A stretch of 32,253 bases of DNA from a virus. The notes under the pieces were generated by a model. The model was not told where the DNA came from and searched no databases. It saw only the letters and a program-made list of their open reading frames with translations. The position numbers and the translations under genes are program-made. Positions 8-29,374 of this stretch are shown piece by piece (the first letter of the stretch is position 1; every line of letters begins with the position of its first letter). The stretch lies in the IMG/VR virus record IMGVR_UViG_3300009499_000172; one strand, 5' to 3'.

Positions 8-286
8 TCATCGGTCATGTTGCATATTCACTGCAATATACTGTTCTCTTAAACGATTTCTTTCAGAAGCAAGCTCATCTGTGTAGTTCATCCATCGTGC
101 ATACAGCTGAAAGAATGGTGGTACGTCATCTGGCCTAGAGCATGAGGGACAACCATTCATCGGAATAGAGCCGTGCTCTGGCGACCACGGATACGACCAG
201 CTGTATCCACAAGAACAACACTCGTAATCGTCATTATTGATGTCGTGTTTACTTAACATTGCATGAAGAGGGACTTGCACCCTCAC
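8..286 (-). CDS. hypothetical small Cys-rich protein (CCSCG...CPSC motif, possible zinc ribbon)
   Basis: ORF in the minus-strand gene tiling. Cys cluster visible in the translation. No family recognised. Confidence 0.3.
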   Translation of the reverse strand: MRVQVPLHAMLSKHDINNDDYECCSCGYSWSYPWSPEHGSIPMNGCPSCSRPDDVPPFFQLYARWMNYTDELASERNRLREQYIAVNMQHDR

Positions 287-304
287 GTCATTTGACAGAG
301 GATT

Positions 305-796
305 TTAAGTTCTCCGCGTCTGCTGTTTCCGCCATTCATGCGCTTGGATTCGTCTATAAAGACTAATGATTCTATCGATATCGATGTCGCTTACTTTTCG
401 CTTCTTCAATACAGACTTAATTATGTTTTTTGAATTTGAGATGAGAATGTTGATTGCTTCTTCCCACACACGGTCATCTGATGCATTATTCAAACGAGCG
501 CAGGCCTGCTTGTAAAGCTTACGCTTAAGCTTTCGATACATACGCATCGACCTGATGCTCTTATCGACGGCTTTAACGTGCATTAGAACATCACGCGGTG
601 AGTCATTGTAGAGTGTTGGAAATGGTACAGTGTATGACACATCAAGGTTCAACAAGTACAGTATGACATTAACAAGCCGTCTTTTGTAAGGAGAAGATTC
701 ATGTATGGATTTGATGAAAGCATCCACGTGGATAATCTCCAAGTTGTTTACTAAAGCCGGCGTAGGCTTTTTCAACACCACAATAATTAATAACAA
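305..796 (-). CDS. hypothetical protein
   Basis: 163-aa minus-strand ORF in a co-oriented gene array. No recognisable motifs. Confidence 0.35.
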   Translation of the reverse strand: MLLIIVVLKKPTPALVNNLEIIHVDAFIKSIHESSPYKRRLVNVILYLLNLDVSYTVPFPTLYNDSPRDVLMHVKAVDKSIRSMRMYRKLKRKLYKQACARLNNASDDRVWEEAINILISNSKNIIKSVLKKRKVSDIDIDRIISLYRRIQAHEWRKQQTRRT

Positions 797-2642: not shown

Positions 2643-3281
2643 CTATTTCATCAATCGTCGTTGCATCAAAAGCATGAACAGACCGACGACAGCAATGACA
2701 AGCACAACCAGCGCATACACCCAACCGAACAAAAGGCAAATGACTGCAGGCGTAATAAGACCCATGTACCATTGTGTGATAATCATCTTGTCTAGATGCT
2801 GTACGTGTGGCTTATCACTGTGCATGTGCATTATGGTGGCCAACGTCATCCGTCCTCCGTCAAGCGGGTATAAGGGAAGGATGTTTCCAAAAAAAATGAA
2901 CACAAGATTCAACATCGCAACGTTAAAAACAAACTCAACTGGAAACAACACGTATGACATGAACAAGATGACAGACGCTAGCAATGATGCTAGTGGCCCA
3001 GCAACAGCGACATCAAACTGAGTTTTCGGTGATGCAGACGATAACATCGATATCAAAGTAGCAGCTCCGACGAAGTTGAGTGCTATGTTATGCACGGCTA
3101 GCCCATGTCGCTTTGCAGCAAGAAAATGACCGAGCTCATGTATGAACACTAACGTAATGCAAACAACATACAGCAAAAAAAACTGCAATCCGACTGCACC
3201 AGCGATGCATGCTAACATGATGACTGATGCATCGATGCTGACTGCCGTCTCTCCAATCGAAAAAATGCGATAACGGGTCAT
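2643..3281 (-). CDS. M50-family site-2 protease-like integral membrane metalloprotease
   Basis: HExxH in a TM helix (FIHELGHFLAAKRHG), a downstream LDGG motif (PLYPLDGGRMTLA) and multiple hydrophobic segments. This is the short SpoIVFB/RseP core architecture. Confidence 0.75.
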   Translation of the reverse strand: MTRYRIFSIGETAVSIDASVIMLACIAGAVGLQFFLLYVVCITLVFIHELGHFLAAKRHGLAVHNIALNFVGAATLISMLSSASPKTQFDVAVAGPLASLLASVILFMSYVLFPVEFVFNVAMLNLVFIFFGNILPLYPLDGGRMTLATIMHMHSDKPHVQHLDKMIITQWYMGLITPAVICLLFGWVYALVVLVIAVVGLFMLLMQRRLMK

Positions 3282-10172: not shown

Positions 10173-10586
10173 CTAATCTTCTTTAAGCTCTAAAGGTTCA
10201 AATGCATCCCAATCGAATGTTAGTGCATCTCCACAGATGATGTTGTGTTCAACAATCTTCACCCATTGTTCATTTCTTTCTTCATTGGAGCTTTCTTCTG
10301 CTTGTTTTAAGAGCCTTTCACGACATTCATCGATATTGTCTTGCATGATGTCAATACCGAATGTGGTGTTGAGGGCCTGTGTGGGTGTTAGGCCGGCTTC
10401 TATCTTTCGCTTGATGGCTTCGACAAGAAAGTTACCGTTGCCACAGCCTGTAATGTCGCCGATTGTCCATGTTGCGTCTGACCAATATGCACAAGGCCAC
10501 ATGTCTAGCATTTGGTGAACTATTCTTATGGGAGTAAAAACTTCACCAAGTTGAAATGCACGAAGTTTTGTTCTCATGTAAACCAT
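10173..10586 (-). pseudogene. truncated N6-adenine MTase-like ORF (motifs X, I, II, III only; no NPPY/F motif IV)
   Basis: GEVFTPIRIV (motif X), DITGCGNGNFLVEA (motif I), FGIDIMQD (motif II) and GDALTFDW (motif III), then a stop. Nothing downstream supplies the catalytic motif IV. It overlaps the upstream MTase stop by 13 nt. Confidence 0.45.
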
Positions 10587-11950
10587 TCTTTCATTTGCAT
10601 TTCTCGCTCATCAACGTCGTCAGACAATAGATGAGATATATCAGGAATTACACCATGTAAAGTAGTGATTGGTCTAACACCTTGATGAAATGCAACAATT
10701 AGTTTCTTAATGATACTATGCTTAATAAACCACTCATGTTTTTCAACATTACGAACAGCAACAACAAAAACTCTACCTCCACCCACGTCTAAACAAGCAC
10801 AATTATCAATTTTTTCACTATAAATTAGTTCTTGAAACGGTACTTTTTCTCTTTTGCCCATAAAACCGTGATATAATACAACACTTTGATATCCTTCATT
10901 TCGTTTTTTTGATAGAAAATTTTCAAATTTTTTATTATGTTTACATTTTTTTTGCTCTAAGACAAACATAGTTGTACCACTTCCACCATCCCACAAAATA
11001 TGCTTATCTTCAACATTAAGAATGTCTTTCTTATTTCGAAATTCACGAGCTTGTTTTTGAGTCTTGTATGAAACACATAAAGATGTACATTCACTAGTTT
11101 CGATTTTTTTTGGGTCAAACAATTCGATTGCACCGTACTTGTTGACTAACAACGCAGCTTTTTCTTGAATCACAACATCTAGTGTGTTATCTAAACACAA
11201 CAACCCATCAATAATGGGTCTTTCTTTATTATTAAGTAAATACTTTGTTGCTATTTGCCCATTCTTTTTAAGAGAAAGTGTCAATATCTCAACATCAATA
11301 CCTTTCCACTCTGGAGGTCGCTGAATTATGTTAATTTTAATTGAATCACCAGCTTCAGCTATTACTTTTTTCCTAAGAGCTGAGCTAGCATTCATAGCCC
11401 AATTTCTAGGCATTAGTTGCACCAACATCCCAGAGTTAGATAAGCTATCTATAGCCTTAATTATAAATTCTTCATAAAGATTTTCTTTACCAGAAATAGA
11501 AAATGGTGGATTTCCAGCAACAATGTCATACTTCACACTATCATTATAACTCAAAAAGTCCTGTTTGATTATAATGTTTTCGACGTCAATATCGACAAGC
11601 TTTGCTAGAGTATATAGTGCTTGCCGTGCACGATGTAGCTGTGCTTCATCGACATCAAACCCACGTATTCTAGCAAAACATTTGCTAAGTCTTTTTTTAT
11701 CATCTGGAATGGCGTGTCGCATCCCATAGTACATCCGTCGTACTGCCTCAAGTAAGAAACCACCCGAACCACAAGTTGGATCAAGCAGCGTTTTAGACGG
11801 ATTGCACCAAAAATTTCTCTCTATTCTCATCATCTTTCTGATAATATAGAGTGGTGTGGTGGTATCAGTACTATCTGAGAATTGCTGCTCTCTGAATAAA
11901 GATGCACTCTTAATCTTTTGATGGACCCGAAAATGATCTTGATAGTTCAT
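10574..11950 (-). CDS. N6-adenine DNA methyltransferase, gamma class (Eco57I/TaqI-like), with C-terminal target-recognition region
   Basis: Motif X TTPLYIIRKMM, motif I LLDPTCGSGGFLLEA, motif IV DIVAGNPPF. The gene is very AT-rich (local GC about 30-35% versus about 45-50% in the flanks). ATGA overlap with the upstream helicase gene. Confidence 0.85.
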   Translation of the reverse strand: MNYQDHFRVHQKIKSASLFREQQFSDSTDTTTPLYIIRKMMRIERNFWCNPSKTLLDPTCGSGGFLLEAVRRMYYGMRHAIPDDKKRLSKCFARIRGFDVDEAQLHRARQALYTLAKLVDIDVENIIIKQDFLSYNDSVKYDIVAGNPPFSISGKENLYEEFIIKAIDSLSNSGMLVQLMPRNWAMNASSALRKKVIAEAGDSIKINIIQRPPEWKGIDVEILTLSLKKNGQIATKYLLNNKERPIIDGLLCLDNTLDVVIQEKAALLVNKYGAIELFDPKKIETSECTSLCVSYKTQKQAREFRNKKDILNVEDKHILWDGGSGTTMFVLEQKKCKHNKKFENFLSKKRNEGYQSVVLYHGFMGKREKVPFQELIYSEKIDNCACLDVGGGRVFVVAVRNVEKHEWFIKHSIIKKLIVAFHQGVRPITTLHGVIPDISHLLSDDVDEREMQMKEWFT

Positions 11951-14421
11951 TTATCCCGCGCATCCCGCGCATTGATCTGGCTGTTGATCTCATCAATTCG
12001 CTTCTGCAATGCACTTTTGACGATGAAGTTATTCTCTATCCACTTCTTAAAGATCAAATATTGGCACTTCGTCATCGTCTCAAACAGCTTCTGGTGTTCT
12101 GGTGATATATCGATGAAGTCACGAACATAATGAATGGTGACACGTTTATAGGTACAACCAATGAATTGGGGAAGACGTCTCAAGACATCTTTCGCCTTCT
12201 TAATCAATTCATTAATCCTTATTTTCTCAGCTGCTTTTTCATCAAATGACTGAATTATTCCAGCTACACGCTCATTTGATTTACCTGTCTCAACACCATT
12301 ACATGCGATAGAAAGCTCTCTGGATTTTGGGGCTGTTTTCTTCGAAGCTGCAGGCAGATTATCTGATGTATCTAATATCTGTAATGCATTTTTCTCATTG
12401 AACTCTGAACTAGATACTGATTGTAGCGTTTTGCCATTTTTACAAGAACTAACATGACCTTGAGCAAGTGTTTTCATATCCTTCTCAGACAAAGGCTGGA
12501 GTTCGAAACTTGAACCGCTAGCATTTATGAGATTTAGACAACTCATGAGCTTAACGCACTTACCTTCAGTGCTTTGATCAGAGGCCTTGGTGTAACGAGC
12601 AAGGTCAAAACAGACTTTGATATTTCTCTCAGGGTGCAAATCGATGATGAGCCTCTTGCTATCTTTTCTGTTCGACTTACCCGGTGACATCGCCCTAAAC
12701 CAAACCTGGACGTTCTTTTCAGCAGTCATGACTGACCATGCTACGATGACACATGTGAGGTTCCAGAATGTCGCTCCCAATCCGTACCTACCGCAGGTTA
12801 AGATAATCGTCGTTTTATCATAATGCTCATTATATCGCAGTTTGTAGTTAACATCGTCGATAGATGGACAATCGCTGCCCGCGACCGAGAGACATTCAAC
12901 ATTTGGTATATTGTCCTCTAGCAAAGCCTTCATCGCCTTACATTGTGCGACCTCATCGAGTGTAATCAATATTGTTTTATGTTTCTGTAACTCTTTCCCT
13001 AATGTCCAGACGTCTCTGGAAGGTCTCAGAAGTCTCAGAGGTTCAGGCTCACTGCTTTTGCCAAAAAGACGCATAAACAGTTTTTTGATGTCATCCGAAT
13101 GCTCAAACACATCGTCGTTCTTCTTCATGACGAAGAACTTCTGCAATGAAAAATGACCCTCGTCGTCAAAGCGATTATGTGCTTCAACAAGTTCGTTAGT
13201 GAATTTGCATGTTACAAGAGTAGATTTATCATAGAGTTTATCCTGACGTGCAGCTTCAATATCATACTCATACTTCTCGCTTGTATTCTTGTCAAATGTA
13301 GCAATCTCCCTAAAGTTTGTACCTGATGAATGGATGATAAAGGGAGGGCTTTCTCGTTCTTCTAGAGACTTAATTAGACCAGCGATGTTAGTGTACGCAT
13401 CCTCATCATCTATCTTATCGATCCCGATATGGCTTTCGTCGGCGATCACAACTTCTGAGTTATAATCATGCGTGATATATTCCTGAATATCAAGAGATGC
13501 ATCTGCCTTCTGTCCTGACACAAAAAGCAGGACACGTAATCCTTTGCTTTCTGCTAAACGAACATCTTCCTTTACATCATCAAGTGACTTACCAGCTGCC
13601 TTTATGAACGCATATCCAGACTCTTCTGCATCACGCTTCCATGATGCCTCAATGCTTGTCGGAACAACAGCAATGACCAACAACCTCTTGACCCCCGAAC
13701 TCGATGCAAAGACTAAACATACTAGTGTCTTACCTGATTGTGGTACAACGCATAAAATGAATTTTTTTTTACTTCCGTTGTACGCTTGTCGCATCTTTTC
13801 GAGAGCAGACTTCTGCCATTCACGTAATTTTAGGTGCTCTTTGACTTTAGCACTACACAATTTTGAATATGCATAAGCTTTTGCTTGCTCGACCATAAGG
13901 TCTTGTAAGCGATCGAAACCATATGCATGTGATTTCTCTTTATCGATTAAGAGTGAATATGGAAAGAAAGTACGCAACTGTTCTGTACCAGCTTTATTGT
14001 AGTCTTCAGTGTTAGAACGATTTTCTTGTTCTCTGATAAGAAAACAACCATTCTTCTTAAGATGTTCGATGAATGGCTTATCGGGGTTACTACATGATTT
14101 AGCATCTTTTGCGATCTTTTTAGGAAAAAGAAAAATTCCAATTGCTTTACCACCCGGTGAAGCTGTGTGATAATTCTTAAATCTTTTGTGCACGTTTTCA
14201 GACATGCCTACCTTAAAATCTACAGCAAGCTTATCATCGGTGCTAGCCGCTGACTTAAAGTCATTAACGTCGGCACGGGCATAAATTACATCATGTGTTT
14301 CATATATTGAAGACCCTTCTTTAACTAAATCCCATCCTTTGCTCCATTCGAGCTCTTCACACGATCCATCCTCATTGAAACGAAGAAATAGTGGGTTTGT
14401 GTCAAAAATTTGTTCATTCAT
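11947..14421 (-). CDS. SF2 helicase/ATPase with N-terminal GIY-YIG-like (T5orf172/MUG113-type) domain; putative restriction-like nuclease-helicase
   Basis: N-terminal region KVGMSENVHKRFKNYHTASP...EQLRTFFPYS resembles the T5orf172 domain. Walker A VVPQSGKT, Walker B/DExH VVIADESH, SGT-like motif IIHSSGTNF. Translationally coupled to the MTase. Confidence 0.65.
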   Translation of the reverse strand: MNEQIFDTNPLFLRFNEDGSCEELEWSKGWDLVKEGSSIYETHDVIYARADVNDFKSAASTDDKLAVDFKVGMSENVHKRFKNYHTASPGGKAIGIFLFPKKIAKDAKSCSNPDKPFIEHLKKNGCFLIREQENRSNTEDYNKAGTEQLRTFFPYSLLIDKEKSHAYGFDRLQDLMVEQAKAYAYSKLCSAKVKEHLKLREWQKSALEKMRQAYNGSKKKFILCVVPQSGKTLVCLVFASSSGVKRLLVIAVVPTSIEASWKRDAEESGYAFIKAAGKSLDDVKEDVRLAESKGLRVLLFVSGQKADASLDIQEYITHDYNSEVVIADESHIGIDKIDDEDAYTNIAGLIKSLEERESPPFIIHSSGTNFREIATFDKNTSEKYEYDIEAARQDKLYDKSTLVTCKFTNELVEAHNRFDDEGHFSLQKFFVMKKNDDVFEHSDDIKKLFMRLFGKSSEPEPLRLLRPSRDVWTLGKELQKHKTILITLDEVAQCKAMKALLEDNIPNVECLSVAGSDCPSIDDVNYKLRYNEHYDKTTIILTCGRYGLGATFWNLTCVIVAWSVMTAEKNVQVWFRAMSPGKSNRKDSKRLIIDLHPERNIKVCFDLARYTKASDQSTEGKCVKLMSCLNLINASGSSFELQPLSEKDMKTLAQGHVSSCKNGKTLQSVSSSEFNEKNALQILDTSDNLPAASKKTAPKSRELSIACNGVETGKSNERVAGIIQSFDEKAAEKIRINELIKKAKDVLRRLPQFIGCTYKRVTIHYVRDFIDISPEHQKLFETMTKCQYLIFKKWIENNFIVKSALQKRIDEINSQINARDARDK

Positions 14422-14451
14422 AGCTTTATTTCTTAAGTTCTACACAGACAG

Positions 14452-14489
14452 ATGAAAGAGATGACATCAGAAGACATCATCTCTTTCAT
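14452..14489. repeat. perfect 13-bp inverted repeat (ATGAAAGAGATGA / TCATCTCTTTCAT) with 12-nt loop
   Basis: Read directly from the sequence. It lies in the 88-nt spacer between the RadA-like gene and the AT-rich helicase-MTase island. No flanking U-tract on either strand. Confidence 0.7.
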
Positions 14490-14509
14490 AACCGACAAGA
14501 CTTAATAGC

Positions 14510-15382
14510 TCATTCCTCGTTCAAAGAGCCCTCTTCCTTCATCCCATCATCCCACATTGACAAAATGTGGCATTGACCCCCATAACCGTAGCGGTTCTTA
14601 CGCGTCGCAATCAACCGCATTCCCTTCGTTTCACTCTTGTCCTTACCATCGACGTGCATGTGAAGCCATACGTCGGTCTCGTGCAGAAGCTTGTTCGCAC
14701 CCGCGATGTCTCCGTTCTTATTGACCTGGCCGATGACGATTGCAGAGTCGAACGTCTTCTTGCAGTGGTCGTTGATGAGCTTCATCGAACGAAACGGCGT
14801 CTGCCCGTTCGTGAAACCGTCTGCGTACCGACCGTCGTCTGTCGTCTGGAGGCTGTCCTGGATGATGACGAGGTGCTTGTCTGGGAATTTCTTCTTAAGC
14901 GTTCGAGCATGGCCGAGGAGGCTTCGACGTGCTCCCGTCTTCACCTGGTGCCTGACAGAGAAGTGGAGGTCGGGCGACTCATCATCAACGAGAGTGTCCT
15001 GTCCGACGAAGAACGTCGGGTTCTTCTTAAAGAGACGCTCACAGACGAGGCGCGTCTGGAACAGAGATTCCTCACCACCGTTGAAGAGAACCATGCAATC
15101 ATTGCGTGAATGCAACGCGTTCGCTATCTGCAGCAGAAGCGTCGACTTACCCGAACCTGGCGTTCCAGAGAACAACGTCATCGTTGATGGAGTGATTCCT
15201 TGGCCACCGTAGAGGTTTGTGACGAACCTCAGTCTAGGAGCTCTGATGTCGTCGTGGAATGCATACCTCTGACGAAGTTTCTCAGGCACGCTAATCTGGT
15301 CGATTGACGTGCAGTGCTCAACATTATCGATTCTAACGCTCATTTTATTCCTTCTTTTCTGACTGGTCGATTGCATCTGCAA
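14510..15382 (-). CDS. RecA-superfamily ATPase, RadA/Sms-core-like (possible phage Sak4-type recombination protein)
   Basis: GGQGITPSTMTLFSGTPGSGKSTLLLQIA (RadA GG.G..PGS..L..G.PG.GKSTLLLQ), Walker B LVIIQDSLQT, and IVIGQVNKNGDIAGANKLLHETDVWLHMHVDG (RadA HVTKEG.IAGPRVLEH.VDTVLYFEG). No Zn-finger or Lon domain. Confidence 0.7.
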   Translation of the reverse strand: MQMQSTSQKRRNKMSVRIDNVEHCTSIDQISVPEKLRQRYAFHDDIRAPRLRFVTNLYGGQGITPSTMTLFSGTPGSGKSTLLLQIANALHSRNDCMVLFNGGEESLFQTRLVCERLFKKNPTFFVGQDTLVDDESPDLHFSVRHQVKTGARRSLLGHARTLKKKFPDKHLVIIQDSLQTTDDGRYADGFTNGQTPFRSMKLINDHCKKTFDSAIVIGQVNKNGDIAGANKLLHETDVWLHMHVDGKDKSETKGMRLIATRKNRYGYGGQCHILSMWDDGMKEEGSLNEE

Positions 15383-15848: not shown

Positions 15849-17393
15849 TCAGTTGTGGTGTCCGCTACCACCGATGAACAGCTCATTGATCGAGTTCGTT
15901 ACAACGAGTAGGTTGTCAATGGCCGGATTTGTGCAACCGGTGATTGGAAACAGCCTGACTCCGTTCGAGCCCCACGTTGTATCAACAGCACCCGTCGTCA
16001 AAAAACGTTGCGTTCTAACGCTTCCCGTCAAAAGACCGGCCGGGTCCTGCATCACAACAACGGGCTTACCGTTCGTAAGCACGACAGCATCAGCGATGAG
16101 AGCCCTATCTGTGGTCAGCATGTTATCAACAAGCACGAGTCCATTTGAGCCGAACGTCGTGTCGAACGTCCCATTAGAGTTGAATGCAACGATAAATCCA
16201 CGAGGAGCACGCAGAAGAGGCGTCGCAGCAGCGCTGTTAGCGACGGTGCCGACCACATAAAACCCACCAGCAGTACCCTTACGAAGGATTTTCGTCACCT
16301 TGATGGCATCAAAGATGCCGGTATCACCGTCGGTCGACAGCAATGAATTGATGGCCGGCCAGGCTAACAATCCACCATTAACGACCTTAAGCGAACCAGA
16401 ATCAGCAACACGCATGACCATCAACGACATTCCGTTTCGACCACCAATCTGTGATGACTTAAACTCAGCCTGGCCCGCAATCAGGTAGCCTGCACCGGTG
16501 ATGGGAAGCCCGGTCTGTGAGGTGTCAGTCAACACCGTCAATGTATGAGCCCTTTCACTCACTGGCAAGCTCTGTCCAAATGGAACAGCATCTCTGTCTG
16601 TGAGAAACATCGAGTTAAACGTCACATCATCCGCGTAGTTTGTATTCGTAAACGTATTCTCAATCTTCGTACGTTGTAGATACGTCTTGAATCGAGGATT
16701 GGGAATCTGACACACACCTGTGCACGTGTTGATGCTATGACCAAGCGCGACGATGTTTCCAAATGACCGAAACGGAACAAACGTTGGACCGACAGTGACA
16801 GGGTCATTATAGAGCCCGTCAGATGTGTACGTCATGTTTGACCCACCCGTAACAATCGGATTCGGCAACGTCCGCGTGTTAACAACACTAAATGTACACA
16901 TACCGGTTGCATTCGATTGGTCGAACGTACGACTGATGACCTGGTTCGCTGTTGGAGGTTGGTCAATGAACGGCAAGCCGAGTGTATGCACGATAATTGG
17001 ACCATAATTGTAGCTTGAGTTATTAACAAACGCAACCTGACCGACGTCAGTGTATGCTTGTGGAGGAGTATTATATGCTGTACACTGCAATGTGACGCCT
17101 CCCGTCGTCCATGTGCGCCTGTTAAGCGACGTGTGATTAATGCTAGCCTGTTGCTCATCACAGGAAGCCCAGATGCGATTATCAACGGCGTCAAAGATTT
17201 GAGATCGCATTGGAGCATAAGTACCAGCGATGTTCCACCCAGTCACCTCTGACCCGGCGGAAGAGATTCTCTTCTCAAATAGAGTCGGCGTTGATAACCA
17301 TGTCGAACAATCAATCGCATGCGCAGGAAATGCAGCACACGTAGAAACGCAGATGACGACCATCAACAAAATACGAAACATATCTTTTAACAT
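15849..17393 (-). CDS. secreted protein with C-terminal delta-60 (beta-propeller-type) repeats
   Basis: Likely start MLKDMFRILLMVVICVSTCAAFPAHA (signal peptide; AAGGAG 5 nt upstream of the ATG at 17391-17393). The ORF track extends to 17492. Repeats such as NSNGTFDTTFGSNGLVLVDN and GAVDTTWGSNGVRLFP match the delta-60 repeat signature. Confidence 0.55.
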   Translation of the reverse strand: MLKDMFRILLMVVICVSTCAAFPAHAIDCSTWLSTPTLFEKRISSAGSEVTGWNIAGTYAPMRSQIFDAVDNRIWASCDEQQASINHTSLNRRTWTTGGVTLQCTAYNTPPQAYTDVGQVAFVNNSSYNYGPIIVHTLGLPFIDQPPTANQVISRTFDQSNATGMCTFSVVNTRTLPNPIVTGGSNMTYTSDGLYNDPVTVGPTFVPFRSFGNIVALGHSINTCTGVCQIPNPRFKTYLQRTKIENTFTNTNYADDVTFNSMFLTDRDAVPFGQSLPVSERAHTLTVLTDTSQTGLPITGAGYLIAGQAEFKSSQIGGRNGMSLMVMRVADSGSLKVVNGGLLAWPAINSLLSTDGDTGIFDAIKVTKILRKGTAGGFYVVGTVANSAAATPLLRAPRGFIVAFNSNGTFDTTFGSNGLVLVDNMLTTDRALIADAVVLTNGKPVVVMQDPAGLLTGSVRTQRFLTTGAVDTTWGSNGVRLFPITGCTNPAIDNLLVVTNSINELFIGGSGHHN

Positions 17394-17435
17394 AAAACTC
17401 CTTATCACGCATAGGCGTGACATTAAACAACATGT

Positions 17436-17473
17436 GGGCGGGCACACAATGCAACATGCACAATGCGCCCGCC
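17436..17473 (-). terminator. candidate attenuator/partial terminator: all-GC 7-bp stem (GGCGGGC / GCCCGCC) followed by a U-rich stretch
   Basis: It lies 20-60 nt downstream of the MVP stop on the minus strand. The RNA reads ...GGCGGGCGC-loop-GCCCGCCCACAUGUUGUUUAAUGU, before the RBS of the downstream gene. Confidence 0.35.
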
Positions 17474-17491
17474 AACATGCACCATCATGCA

Positions 17492-26023: not shown

Positions 26024-27967
26024 TCATTGGATACAAACGTTTGAAAACACGCTTCGAAGGACATCGACATACCTGACTGGGTCTGCTGGGTAGAGGTCGA
26101 TTAGCCGCGACTGTTCGTTGAACGTGATGTCATTCCACATCATCCAAAATGAGCTTGGTGTGATGACATACGTCTCATACTCATCACCCTGAGCGCATGA
26201 ACCGACACGACAATCACCCATCTCTTGGGCGACGATTGTCTCACGTGATTGCATCGTCGTCTGCTCCCATGTCTGCGCAGGCTCATCAGTGATGATTATG
26301 ATGTATGGGTACGCACCCGTGTTGCTACCCATGGGTGAACGCCAACCTATGTGGAGCGGGTCTGCTGGATTCGCTGCCAACCACCCAACATCATAGCTCG
26401 GCTCAAGACCACCGTAGCTACAATCAAGCGATGCTAATGCTCGTTGGAATTCAGTGATATCGACGAGAGCGCTTGTCTGTGAGCCAGTGAGCATTAGAAC
26501 GGGTATGCCTGATGCAGAGCCTGATGGTTCAACACCAGGAAAGACGCCCAAACAAAAGCGATGCTCAGAGCCGATGAAGTCTGTGGCGTATGCAGAGATG
26601 CCTGCCCTCAATGCTGCCATCGTGGAGCACATCGACCCTGAGCCGTCGATGAAGAAACATATATCGACGCGCTCATGTGGATTGAGCTCTTCATCGATTA
26701 GACCATCACAATCATCATCCCTGTGGTTGCACACCTCAGCAATCGGAACAACAGAGCCCGCACACTGCGTCCATGTGCCAAAGTCACACATCTTTGAACC
26801 CATGCGACACTCACCGACACCAGCCGTCGATGCATCACCACACTGCTCAGCATAACCGTCAATGAGACCGTCACAGTCGTTATCTACACTATCGCATTTT
26901 TCTGGTTCAGTCGTCAAAAAGTAGCATGGACCCCAGCTACCCATATCATCACAGATTGAGACGCCCACGCCGCAGTTCGTTGGAAGACCGGTTGCCCTAT
27001 CTATGACATTTTCCCTACAGAGCATGACATCATCAGCAACGCAAGAACAACCCTCGTCGACACGACCGTTGCAATCGTTATCGATGCCATCACATAGCTC
27101 AGCAACGGGCGTCGGAGCATCACAATCAACCCATACACCACTGCTACAGTGTTCAATGCCACTTCCACACACTGTTGAACACCGCCTGAAGAGGCCATCA
27201 TCAATGAATCCGTTGCAATCATCATCAGAACCGTTGCACACCTCTGACGTAGGAAGGATGGCATTAATGCACACGCGGTCATGCTCGGGCGTGCAAATCA
27301 AATCTCCCATATGACACGCGCCGATGTTTGATGTTCCACACTGCCCAGATGATGTCTCATCCGTCAATCCGTTGCAGTCGTTGTCTAGCCCATCACACAC
27401 CTCATGCTCAGGAAGACGTTGGCCAACGCATTGACCTGAGATGCCACCTGAACAAAACGCAAGACCCTTTGAACATATCGACTGTGATGAAAAGACTGAC
27501 ACGAACGGACCGGTCCAACAAACATCGTAAAAAGCGTCGATGACGCCATCACAATCATTGTCTAACCCATCGCAAAGCTCTTTAGCATCAGGATTGATGA
27601 ACGGTGTCGTGTCATCACAATCACCAGAGCACGCTGTGTATCCGTCAACGTCTGAATCAAACCCTTCATCGATGAGGCCATCGCAGTCGTTATCTAGCCC
27701 ATCACAGAACTCGTCTGTGGCCGCTACGAAGCCATCGCACCTATCGACGACGTTCAGTTCATTGCATGCAGTGATTCCCATCTTACATGCGCCGCGTAGC
27801 TTAAGAGCCTCGAGGCCTGTCGTGATAACCTCACCGTCGCTAACGATGCATGGGACAGGTATTGGACATGCATGGCCCAGACCATCAGGTTCAGAGCATG
27901 CTGATATCAGCAGGATGACTGAGACATACGCTATAGCACGTGATTTCTTTGACTGATTTAGGGCCAT
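26024..27967 (-). CDS. lipoprotein with seven tandem Cys/Asp-rich repeats (CxGxDNDCDGxxDE; TSP3-like / putative Ca- or metal-binding) and a C-terminal VWA-like domain
   Basis: Signal peptide plus lipobox MALNQSKKSRAIAYVSVILLISAC. The repeats are CDGLDNDCDGLIDEG, CDGLDNDCDGVID, CDGLDNDCNGLTDE, CNGSDDDCNGFIDDG, CDGIDNDCNGRVDEG, CDSVDNDCDGLIDG and CNHRDDDCDGLIDEE. MIDAS-like motif ICFFIDGSGSMCS. Confidence 0.7.
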   Translation of the reverse strand: MALNQSKKSRAIAYVSVILLISACSEPDGLGHACPIPVPCIVSDGEVITTGLEALKLRGACKMGITACNELNVVDRCDGFVAATDEFCDGLDNDCDGLIDEGFDSDVDGYTACSGDCDDTTPFINPDAKELCDGLDNDCDGVIDAFYDVCWTGPFVSVFSSQSICSKGLAFCSGGISGQCVGQRLPEHEVCDGLDNDCNGLTDETSSGQCGTSNIGACHMGDLICTPEHDRVCINAILPTSEVCNGSDDDCNGFIDDGLFRRCSTVCGSGIEHCSSGVWVDCDAPTPVAELCDGIDNDCNGRVDEGCSCVADDVMLCRENVIDRATGLPTNCGVGVSICDDMGSWGPCYFLTTEPEKCDSVDNDCDGLIDGYAEQCGDASTAGVGECRMGSKMCDFGTWTQCAGSVVPIAEVCNHRDDDCDGLIDEELNPHERVDICFFIDGSGSMCSTMAALRAGISAYATDFIGSEHRFCLGVFPGVEPSGSASGIPVLMLTGSQTSALVDITEFQRALASLDCSYGGLEPSYDVGWLAANPADPLHIGWRSPMGSNTGAYPYIIIITDEPAQTWEQTTMQSRETIVAQEMGDCRVGSCAQGDEYETYVITPSSFWMMWNDITFNEQSRLIDLYPADPVRYVDVLRSVFSNVCIQ

Positions 27968-28001
27968 CTATACCTTGTATCAACGAAAGTAATAGATGTT
28001 A

Positions 28002-28280: not shown

Positions 28281-28541
28281 TCAGACGTTCGTCTTTGATA
28301 CCCTTGTGTCGTATATCTCATGAAGATATGAAACAACGAGGTTCTGAAATGATTGTGACGCTGCCAGCTCGGCTGGGTCGCCTGTTAGGCCGTACGTACC
28401 CATCAACGCGATCGCAAACTTTTCCATGACCCTCAAAACAACGTTCCTCACGGTCGAATGACCACATGGCTTATCGTTAAGCGTCATGATGTCTGCTATC
28501 ATCCTGTAGTCCATCCCTTCACCCATATCATCAATTCTCAT
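28281..28541 (-). CDS. small protein with sigma-70 region-4.2-like helix-turn-helix
   Basis: [37 protein letters not shown] resembles sigma70 DYTLEEVGKQFDVTRERIRQIEAKAL. The ATG overlaps the sigma gene stop (ATGA). Confidence 0.4.
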
Positions 28542-29374
28542 ATTGCGACCCCCGTCGATGCATTCTCAAGCATTCGAAGCTCTTTGTGTGTGATTGGAAA
28601 CCTGACATCATCTGTCGGGTCCTGCACGATTCCAAACCTAAGCACGAGGATTGCAGTCTCACGTGGAGTCAGTGAATCCAACACCTGTGATATTTTCGAT
28701 ATAAGCTCTTTTTTGTCGAACATGTCAAACGGAGACAGAGAGTCATCATCTGGAATGACATCACGCAACGTCTTTATTGACCCAGCGTCATGCGACCTAC
28801 CCACCTCAGCGTCGATTGATACGACGTATGGTGTTCCGCTCAATGCCGTCGATACAGTCGTCTCTGTGATTCCAAGTAACTCAGCAAGCTCAGCACGTGT
28901 GGGCTCTTGACCATGAAGTTCAATGAACTCATCACGTGCTGAGCTTAGCTCAGCAAGGACAGAGCCATTCCTACCTGGGACGCGAATTGTTCGACCCTGG
29001 TTCGCGATGAACCGACCGACGGCCTGACGAATCCACCACGATGCATACGTTGAAAACCTGAAGCCGCGGCGCCAGTCGAACTTATCAACAGCCTTCATCA
29101 GACCGACATTACCCTCAGCAATCAGGTCTTCAAGGTCACAACCCCTGTTCTGTTGTGTCTTTGCGATTGAAACGACCAATCTGAGATTGGACTCAATCAT
29201 TTTTTGCTTGGCACGTTTTTGTTCGTGCAATGACACGGGTTGCGTGCTTCCGTCTGGAAGCACCAACGTTCCCTCAATCTTCTGTGAAAGCTCAATCTCT
29301 TGCTCTTTTGTCAAGAGCTTGCGGCGGCCTATCTGCTTCAAGTAGATGCTAAGGCCCTCTGGCGATTTTCTCAC
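28538..29374 (-). CDS. sigma-70 family RNA polymerase sigma factor (regions 1.2, 2, 3 and 4; no region 1.1)
   Basis: [54 protein letters not shown] matches regions 2.1-2.4 almost residue for residue. Region 4.1 [15 protein letters not shown], region 4.2 [18 protein letters not shown] start with AGGAG 6 nt upstream. Confidence 0.85.

Follow-up and report, generated by a model that had tools for sequence, protein, structure and literature searches.

The window analysed here, the whole 32,253-nucleotide (nt) stretch of viral record IMGVR_UViG_3300009499_000172, carries at 26024..27967 on the minus strand a complete gene of 647 codons followed by a TGA stop, with the same boundaries in the open reading frame (ORF) list as in an earlier sequence-only reading of this DNA. 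The product, a predicted lipoprotein, combines an export signal, a Cys/Asp-rich stalk bearing seven PF11617 motifs and, at the C-terminus, a VWA domain that contains a MIDAS (metal-ion-dependent adhesion site), an architecture that would suit an envelope-anchored binding protein made during infection. Nearly every gene of the window lies on the minus strand, this one included, and Shine-Dalgarno-like motifs are sparse (15/39 genes, versus a background of 18%). The features of the gene are listed below; statements on invariance, here and throughout, are based on an alignment of 83 homologues.

27973..27976, minus strand: weak Shine-Dalgarno-like AAGG, read from the sequence, 6 nt 5' of the ATG start
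26024..27967, minus strand: whole lipoprotein, seven PF11617 motifs and C-terminal VWA domain, from the ORF list
27899..27967, minus strand: predicted signal peptide (residues 1-23), whose n-region contains K7, K8 and R10 and is followed by the h-region AIAYVSVILLISA
27896..27910, minus strand: lipobox L-I-S-A-C, residues 20-24, with C24 as the predicted lipidated first mature residue
26690..27895, minus strand: Cys/Asp-rich stalk, residues 25-426, an N-terminal module and seven modules of 44-77 amino acids (aa) each
27668..27706, minus strand: PF11617 motif 1, CDGLDNDCDGLID, residues 88-100; C88, C95 and D100 invariant
27536..27574, minus strand: PF11617 motif 2, CDGLDNDCDGVID, residues 132-144; C132, D136 and C139 invariant
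before motif 2: segment DSDVDGYTACSGDCDD, which aligns with residues 5-63 of MopE (2vov)
27359..27397, minus strand: PF11617 motif 3, CDGLDNDCNGLTD, residues 191-203, from Pfam, pattern search and alignment
27200..27238, minus strand: PF11617 motif 4, CNGSDDDCNGFID, residues 244-256, from the same three sources
27056..27094, minus strand: PF11617 motif 5, CDGIDNDCNGRVD, residues 292-304, likewise
26858..26896, minus strand: PF11617 motif 6, CDSVDNDCDGLID, residues 358-370, likewise
26693..26731, minus strand: PF11617 motif 7, CNHRDDDCDGLID, residues 413-425, likewise
26027..26671, minus strand: VWA (integrin I-like) domain and Cys-containing C-terminal extension, residues 433-647, from AlphaFold2, Foldseek and the family profile
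26633..26647, minus strand: MIDAS motif D441-G-S443-G-S445; D441, S443, S445 and M446 invariant
26402..26404, minus strand: E522 in G-G-L-E-P-S-Y-D, candidate fourth MIDAS ligand placed by alignment; E522 and D526 invariant
just upstream of D561-E562: I-G-W-R motif (W542, R543); R543 invariant and W542 nearly so
26282..26287, minus strand: D561-E562, end of the beta-strand YIIIITDE, both invariant, with D561 as candidate fifth MIDAS ligand

Export signal and stalk

The N-terminus reads MALNQSKKSRAIAYVSVILLISA up to the cysteine C24, and consists of a basic n-region, a hydrophobic core of 13 residues and the sequence I-S-A-C24. This fits the lipobox pattern [LVI][ASTVI][GAS]C, for which the Cys has to fall between positions 15 and 35, as well as a PS51257-like pattern. 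C24 was invariant in the homologues (n = 83/83), all of which had a leader of the same type (n = 83/83), and the strict lipobox pattern was passed by 65/83 homologues and by 65/80 complete viral ORFs. The sequence-only reading had proposed a lipoprotein with an LISAC lipobox, and the pattern fit together with the invariant C24 upheld both the signal and the lipobox. Many homologues have a G-C-x-C context, in which either of the two Cys may be the lipidated one. The four residues after the conserved Cys include on average two Asp/Glu. Under the enterobacterial +2 rule, acidic residues in this position would lead to inner-membrane retention. They equally resemble, to judge from their composition, the surface-export signal of Bacteroidota lipoproteins, whose consensus is SDDDD or SDDFE (PMC5080379).

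The number of Cys in the mature chain is even (50), and every one of the 14 motif Cys, together with most of the other stalk Cys, was invariant, which fits a disulfide-bonded protein located outside the cytoplasm. These observations bear on a different explanation, in which the product is a virion-associated host-recognition adhesin whose VWA domain binds the receptor and whose apparent signal peptide is mis-called or non-functional. Some phage VWA proteins are annotated as virion structural, e.g. that of Pseudomonas phage PaMx28, a BFVD match, and Cys-rich modular rods serve as fibres elsewhere. However, the lipobox and hydrophobic leader are kept across homologues of 28-80% identity, the 50 conserved Cys would call for oxidising surroundings whereas tailed-phage virions are put together in the cytoplasm, and the gene lies among replication, chaperone and transcription genes, not structural ones; a virion adhesin is thus very unlikely.

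PF11617 (Cu-binding_MopE, "putative metal-binding motif") was the only Pfam family found on the window copy, with 113.6 bits (E = 4.6e-33) over seven stretches, and neither NCBIfam nor PADLOC gave a match to the lipoprotein. The sequence-only reading had expected PF11617-like repeats, and the Pfam scan returned seven matches above threshold (gathering threshold of 27 bits). The pattern C-x3-D-x-D-C-x-G-x2-D was located at residues 88, 132, 191, 244, 292, 358 and 413, with a spacing of 44-66 aa, and each of the seven stalk modules ends in E-x-C-x3-D-x-D-C-x-G-x2-D. Residues 25-432 include 43 Cys and are composed of 14% Asp and 12% Gly.

Pairwise identity among the motif cores (~13-17 aa) was 47-76%, with a mean of 62%, and the Cys-rich modules around the cores differ; a tandem repeat array at the DNA level was absent, save for one 21-bp match of 1.9 copies. 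The modules are diverged and there is no DNA-level array, indicating that the repeats are old. Of the "seven near-identical repeats" of the sequence-only reading, then, the seven PF11617 motifs stand, while the near-identity was overstated, being limited to the cores (47-76%). Conservation among homologues was strong, all repeat Cys being invariant, as was the Glu two residues ahead of the motif for five of the motifs. All seven motifs have D-N-D-C-D/N-G, with invariant D at +4 and +12, D/N at +6 and +8, and G at +9. This acidic-loop pattern is that of a DxDxDG-type Ca2+ loop, and binding of Ca2+ by the motif loops is a reasonable expectation from it.

AlphaFold2 predicted the stalk as small beta-hairpin modules without helices. 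A stalk-only model (predicted local distance difference test, pLDDT, of 82.6) had no Foldseek match in the PDB at E<=0.001; its best, non-significant hits were the modular Cys-rich extracellular proteins NEL and PAPP-A. Homology of the stalk to thrombospondin type-3 repeats or COMP was rejected, no TSP/COMP chain being found with the full-length profile against the PDB at E<=0.1; the thrombospondin type-3 likeness in the sequence-only reading therefore holds at the level of the DxDxDG-like motif, and not as homology by profile or fold.

The only stalk match in the PDB was MopE (2vov), with an E-value of 0.0045 when the single sequence was searched and of 0.023 with the profile. By analogy with MopE/CorA, the protein could be imagined as an extracytoplasmic Cu or Ca capture or storage protein, as the Pfam family name, the MopE match and the Asp content of the stalk would suggest. 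However, the match is confined to MopE residues 5-63, the MopE copper site, which PMC3423442 gives as two His and a kynurenine, differs from the PF11617 motif, and the invariant MIDAS of the VWA head points to protein-ligand binding, so that a metal capture or storage protein is highly improbable. The "Cu-binding" of the Pfam name is not transferable, as only residues 5-63 of 2vov align and the copper-site core of MopE/CorA was unmatched; PF11617 is documented as covering only a small region of MopE/CorA (PMC6189053), and the same short motif is present in teneurins and in a Volvox gametolysin (PMC3278476).

The C-terminal VWA domain and its MIDAS

The C-terminal 215 residues, which begin VDICFFIDGSGSM, contain the motif DGSGSM (D441, S443, S445 and M446). 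A single-sequence PDB search with the window protein gave a weak match to MopE only. Among 44 orthologous C-terminal domains, Pfam VWA_2 was found in 24/44 and VWA in 19/44, with a best E-value of 2.4e-7, so the Pfam check proposed in the sequence-only reading picked up the domain in part of the orthologues and not in the window copy. When a family profile of the 44 domains was compared with the PDB, the matches were the I domains of integrin beta-8 (2.4e-6) and alpha-X (6.5e-6), and also of alpha-L; with the full-length profile, alpha-X ranked first.

An AlphaFold2 model built on the 83 homologues had a mean pLDDT of 87.3, with values mostly above 90 over residues 433-647, which showed the alternating strand/helix pattern of the VWA fold. 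Foldseek matched it in the PDB to the I domains of integrins alpha-X and alpha-M, collagen VI, ANTXR2 and integrin beta subunits, with E-values of 2.5e-8 to 1e-5, template-modelling scores (target) of 0.65-0.73 and identities of 10-17%. There were 219 PDB matches at E<=0.001, the best 50 of which were almost all VWA/I-domain chains, and the matches in BFVD were VWFA proteins. The C-terminus is a VWA domain, on the basis of the Pfam matches of the orthologues, the family profile, and the AlphaFold2 model with its Foldseek matches, and the C-terminal VWA with DGSGSM in the sequence-only reading is borne out by the same results.

Nine residues of this domain were invariant (D441, S443, S445, M446, E522, D526, R543, D561 and E562). 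The alignment with integrin beta-8 pairs the family sequence VDxxFxxDxSGSM with VDLYYLVDVSASM, placing the MIDAS residues opposite VDVSASM; the Glu of G-G-x-E-P-S-Y-D (E522) falls opposite the Glu of P-E-G-G-F-D, I-G-W-R opposite I-G-W-R, and the strand end I-T-D-E opposite M-T-D-Q. As judged from these aligned positions, the MIDAS is complete, with Glu in place of Thr as a candidate fourth ligand, in the style of beta-I domains. Pfam Integrin_beta had no match in any of the 44 members at E<=0.01; given this, and because alpha-I domains score about equally, the domain is not classed as Integrin_beta.

Distribution, gene neighbourhood and host

Two marine metagenome contigs from ENA, of 74.7 and 83.5 kb, encode an identical protein (P0001 in our set), the window being the first 32 kb of the 83.5-kb contig and the 74.7-kb contig coming from a second assembly. 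Full-length homologues numbered about 90, with lengths of 610-760 aa and identities of 36-80%; all of them were metagenomic (JGI, ENA, Tara and Logan) and all unnamed or "hypothetical". In IMG/VR, 469 relatives confirmed by tblastn were found on viral contigs of up to 267 kb. Eighty complete viral ORFs were rebuilt from IMG/VR loci; 76 of them had DxSxS near the C-terminus, and the motif count ranged from 5 to 9, most commonly 7 or 6. On the 267-kb contig IMGVR_UViG_3300030329_006583, two diverged paralogues (L046 and L052), one of 814 aa with 9 motifs and the other of 713 aa with 6, lie ~50 kb apart.

A HMMER search with the C-terminal profile against 1.84 billion representative proteins gave 62 representatives at E<1e-30, most of them of 580-700 aa and with the same plan as the window protein; a few were giant Cys-rich repeat proteins ending in this C-terminal domain, annotated as "DUF4215 domain-containing protein [bacterium]" or "cysteine-rich repeat protein". 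A word-indexed protein search with this profile recovered fragments of the lipoprotein family only. There was no tblastn match in 50,697 GenBank phage records to the lipoprotein or to a distant family member, no megablast match of 18 kb of the window to GenBank phages, and no PHROGs family match to the lipoprotein, which is likewise absent from a 2026 jumbo-phage review and from the main marine jumbo-phage survey. In a GTDB scan with the full alignment that covered the first 600 pattern hits, the best 80 loci included no full-length cellular match, and the cellular matches to the repeat region ended at about residue 430 of the query.

The window encodes a T4 Rnl1-like RNA ligase, a denV-like pyrimidine-dimer glycosylase, an HNH endonuclease, an N6-methyltransferase, a ResIII helicase, NT5C, an M50 peptidase, HSP20, a sigma-70 factor, a tRNA-Leu, a MoxR-type ATPase (phrog_1297) and a DUF2201 metallopeptidase/VWA-like protein, and just upstream in the contig are GroEL, NUDIX and 5'-3' exonuclease genes. 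The homologue contigs are of 190-308 kb, with DNA polymerase III alpha, thymidylate synthase, ClpP, GroEL, DnaK and ribonucleotide reductase nearby. The lipoprotein gene lies in non-structural regions, near genes for GroEL, DnaK, HSP20, a sigma factor, ribonucleotide reductase and DNA polymerase, and when ten large ORFs beside it in related loci were compared with PHROGs, ribonucleotide reductase, DNA polymerase and DnaK were detected and no structural genes. Since no structural genes were found in these stretches, the viral assignment is based on IMG/VR membership and gene content, and from the IMG/VR classification and this gene content the element is best described as a member of an uncultured marine jumbo-phage lineage. 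The phage-like element of the sequence-only reading was in this way corroborated by the 469 IMG/VR relatives and the phage-type neighbours.

The immediate neighbours of the lipoprotein gene are an 88-aa ORF and an ATPase gene, and the downstream order is lipoprotein gene, MoxR-type AAA+ gene (~112-113 nt on), a 104-aa ORF and the DUF2201 protein. In related loci a conserved block includes, on the upstream side, GroEL (14 loci), a glutaredoxin-like gene and, directly upstream of the lipoprotein gene in 14 loci, an ORF of 64-70 aa for a CxxC...CxxCxG zinc ribbon. A VanY/M15 peptidase with a signal peptide is encoded ~300 nt downstream in 10-11 loci (Pfam PF02557 in L004), and in 4 loci the downstream side encodes a protein that has a lipobox-like N-terminus and that we take to be SLT-like from our own reading of its motif. 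Loci L004 and L011-L027 have, within ~0-4 kb on either side, a block rich in chaperone and envelope-enzyme genes, and DnaK is also near the lipoprotein gene in more distant relatives. The spacer between the lipoprotein and ATPase genes (25912..26023, minus strand, 112 nt) contains repeated AACGTT-containing words, aaacgttatttcgttgtgtaaacgcttgttaacgttgtttag; it had no match to a consensus sigma-70 promoter or terminator, and could be a phage-specific regulatory site.

This neighbourhood gives rise to a further explanation, in which the protein is a periplasmic envelope tether, or an accessory to cell-wall remodelling or lysis, acting with the exported VanY/M15 or SLT-like enzyme. The anchor would sit in one membrane and the VWA head would grip peptidoglycan-associated or opposite-membrane proteins, either stabilising the envelope through a long jumbo-phage cycle or disrupting it at lysis; from a rough estimate based on seven small modules, the stalk could span the periplasm. 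The signal-peptide VanY (10-11 loci) and the SLT-like protein (4 loci), the conserved gene order in the block, the general logic of phage spanins, in which a lipoprotein is joined to an extended periplasmic domain, and a core-gene-like conservation that fits a conserved envelope target all argue for it. On the other side, neither VanY nor SLT has a homologue within 32 kb in the window phage, the C-terminus (...VLRSVFSNVCIQ) is not hydrophobic and provides no transmembrane segment, no i-spanin-like neighbour is present, 647 aa is several times the size of known spanins, PHROGs lysis families gave no match, and the SLT assignment is a motif reading. An o-spanin or u-spanin proper was rejected by the length of 647 aa, the lack of a hydrophobic C-terminus and the neighbours, i.e. 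the 88-aa ORF and the ATPase; the broader tether explanation is unlikely, yet deserves to be carried along.

The adjacent ATPase gene (24745..25911) raises the question of whether the protein is a cytoplasmic VWA partner or substrate adaptor of this MoxR-type AAA+ enzyme. The AAA_5/MoxR-like gene (phrog_1297, 1.2e-48) follows ~112-113 nt downstream on the same strand, an AAA5 homologue is present within 10 kb on the same strand in 17/25 other close-orthologue loci (L003-L027), and one more locus (L020) has it within 10 kb on the opposite strand. However, two genes on lies a canonical partner for the ATPase itself, a DUF2201_N metallopeptidase and DUF2201 VWA-like protein (22713..24464), and the ATPase/DUF2201 pair occurs without the MopE-VWA gene in AR9/PBS1, N4-like and Vibrio phages. 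The spacing to the lipoprotein gene varies from 0.1 to 8.6 kb (1.5-8.6 kb downstream in loci other than the window), the ATPase is absent near distant members, and the lipoprotein has an export signal whereas the ATPase has no signal peptide. A MoxR-VWA pairing was rejected on the variable spacing, the DUF2201 partner and the export signal, direct adjacency being limited to the window phage, and it is extremely unlikely.

The segment 22713..25911 (minus strand) comprises this MoxR-type AAA_5 ATPase (phrog_1297), the 104-aa ORF and a 583-aa DUF2201_N/DUF2201 VWA-like protein (phrog_1314). The label of phrog_1314 in PHROGs and in several GenBank records, "HNH endonuclease", looks like a mis-annotation, and the ATPase/DUF2201 pair is found at ~25% identity in AR9/PBS1, N4-like Salmonella phages and Vibrio phages.

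As to the host, the sequence-only reading had pointed to a deltaproteobacterial-type lineage, and the evidence for this is weak. The best cellular repeat matches did come from Myxococcota, "Deltaproteobacteria" and Bradymonadia metagenome-assembled genomes, but the repeats are all that they share, the C-terminal domain being unmatched. PF11617 seems to occur mainly in Myxococcota, in line with the match lists; a query of any kind with PF11617 would be likely to fall there, and such matches therefore say little on the host. Myxococcota proteins with VWA and PF11617 were rejected as orthologues, as BLASTP of the C-terminal domain gave nothing better than E = 0.28 and the repeats alone matched. 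The "delta-60" protein, offered as a second clue to the same lineage, scored 29.5 bits with TIGR02608 against a curated cut-off of 76.5. The GC content of the window is 37-55%, far below that typical of Myxococcota; the Bacteroidota -7 promoter motif TANNTTTG was not enriched (9 found versus 13.7 expected), and the single tRNA-Leu gives no host clue.

Several other genes of the window, all on the minus strand, are recorded here. The sigma-70 factor (28281..29374) appears to be naturally split into a 278-aa ORF with regions 1.2, 2, 3 and the start of region 4, which ends soon after "LRFGI", and an 86-aa ORF that overlaps it by ATGA and has a region-4.2-like helix-turn-helix. The two-ORF arrangement was present in both assemblies and in the diverged IMG/VR loci L028/L029, L045 and L052 (40-44% identity), indicating that it is not an assembly error. 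An 887-aa protein homologous to the eukaryotic major vault protein (MVP) has its gene at 17492..20155, with Pfam MVP_shoulder (1.8e-18) and Vault_3 (3.2e-8), and aligns to rat MVP residues 477-797 (E = 1.6e-9); earlier reports describe MVP homologues from phages and bacteria (bioRxiv 10.1101/2023.11.10.566534, 10.1101/872010), and this protein would be a marine example.

The "delta-60" protein (15849..17492, 547 aa) has one TIGR02608 stretch at residues 434-456 and no Pfam or PHROGs match. A methyltransferase/helicase cluster at 10173..15382 includes an ORF of 137 aa that faintly matches MmeI_Mtase, an N6-adenine methyltransferase of 458 aa (PADLOC mad2, type II MTase), an 824-aa ResIII helicase (weak PbeA) and a 290-aa P-loop NTPase (weak mad8), and could be an anti-restriction or DNA-modification module. 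At 2643..3281 lies a gene for a 212-aa Peptidase_M50, a site-2-protease-like membrane protease (1.5e-16) whose presence in a phage seems unusual. Near the window start (260..341) there is a tRNA-Leu(taa).

Proposed role and known counterparts

We tentatively propose, at a little under an even chance, that the gene encodes an envelope-anchored, MIDAS-dependent binding protein made during infection, that is, an integrin-type binding molecule on one chain. During infection, the precursor would be exported by Sec, and host Lgt and LspA would lipidate and cleave it at C24, tethering it to a membrane of a Gram-negative host. In the oxidising periplasm the 50 mature Cys would form disulfides, each of the seven E-x-C-x3-D-x-D-C-x-G-x2-D loops would probably bind Ca2+, and this loading would stiffen the ~400-residue stalk to an extended rod. 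The stalk would display the C-terminal VWA domain, whose MIDAS (D441, S443, S445, E522 and D561) would hold Mg2+, Mn2+ or Ca2+, and an acidic side chain of the ligand would complete the coordination, as with integrin I domains. In the last and least certain step, the binding properties of the surface or envelope of the infected cell would be changed, possibly by occupying a conserved envelope structure, thereby blocking secondary infection or the loss of progeny, or by causing infected cells to stick to surfaces or to other cells. The roles suggested in the sequence-only reading (superinfection exclusion, surface remodelling and Ca-dependent attachment) are all plausible options, none of which is favoured here; receptor masking or superinfection exclusion, and adhesion, are what one would classically expect of a phage lipoprotein and of a MIDAS adhesin.

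The biological role is the weakest step of the model, and a number of points weigh against the proposal as a whole. The window copy itself had no match to the Pfam VWA models at E<=0.1. Because the stalk has no significant PDB relative, Ca2+ binding by it draws on the motif only. The lipoprotein gene is large and syntenic, with the conservation of a core gene, whereas superinfection-exclusion proteins are usually small, fast-evolving and patchy in distribution, and such conservation fits a conserved housekeeping role at least as well. The VanY and SLT-like neighbours hint at a periplasmic, cell-wall-linked role rather than one at the surface, and both the envelope type of the host and its sorting rules are assumed.

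A more far-reaching version of the binding-protein proposal is possible but doubtful: that uncultured marine jumbo phages carry as a near-core gene their own beta-integrin-like surface lipoprotein, which re-programmes adhesion or receptor access in the infected cell. The lipid anchor, the stalk of Ca loops and disulfides and the MIDAS VWA head would then form a compact counterpart of the Myxococcus xanthus focal-adhesion protein CglD, a likeness put forward just as doubtfully. To our knowledge, this would be the first integrin-type adhesion module in bacterial viruses and, if true, a possible vehicle moving beta-I-like VWA domains between lineages. Every part is already known (lipobox, PF11617 motif, VWA/MIDAS), and the same combination, described until now from myxobacteria, is found in CglD; the novelty lies in the carrier and the spread, with the architecture kept in hundreds of viral contigs from marine metagenomes. 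If the protein were displayed on infected cells, it would offer a testable handle on surface change by large marine phages during long infections. The signal and sorting residues, which are conserved, may also be of use in narrowing down the hosts.

The protein was compared with several known systems. Like T5 Llp, phi80 Cor, TP-J34 Ltp and the Rz1 o-spanins, it would be an exported, lipid-anchored phage product, but these have ~60-200 aa, contain neither VWA nor PF11617 and show no sequence relationship, PHROGs giving no match at all. MopE/CorA of methanotrophs have the short motif C-x-D-G-x-D-x-x-C-D-G in common with it, and not the copper-binding core. The best cellular repeat matches, two Myxococcota proteins of ~1000 aa (P0090 and P0109; 35-40% identity over 53-57% of the query), also join PF11617 with a Pfam VWA domain, although the likeness to the phage protein is confined to the repeats. 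Integrin I domains have the same VWA fold, and in the beta-8 alignment DxSxS, the beta-I-type Glu, I-G-W-R and the T-D strand end all align; unlike integrins, the phage protein has no hybrid or PSI domain, transmembrane tail or alpha partner.

The closest described analogue is CglD, compared here by its published domain description and as a functional analogy. CglD is a surface-exposed gliding lipoprotein with a Ca2+-dependent function; its twelve DxDxDG repeats were matched to COMP, its Cys-rich stalk is EGF-like, contains 46 Cys and shows dithiothreitol-sensitive mobility, and its VWA domain was matched to integrin beta-3, the D656N mutant in the MIDAS of this domain being defective (bioRxiv 10.1101/2023.10.19.562135). 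The two proteins differ in that CglD is cellular, has 1130 aa with the Ca-binding region at 40-430 and an internal VWA at 644-1111, and serves the gliding (Glt) machinery, which has no counterpart in the window, whereas the phage protein has 647 aa, a terminal VWA, seven PF11617 motifs in a stalk that, unlike the CglD repeats, lacks a COMP/TSP match by profile or fold, and Glu instead of Thr as the candidate fourth MIDAS ligand. They are alike in their lipoprotein signal, DxDxDG-type loops, Cys-rich stalk and VWA domain with a DxSxS MIDAS, and CglD shows that such a combination of parts can work as an adhesin.

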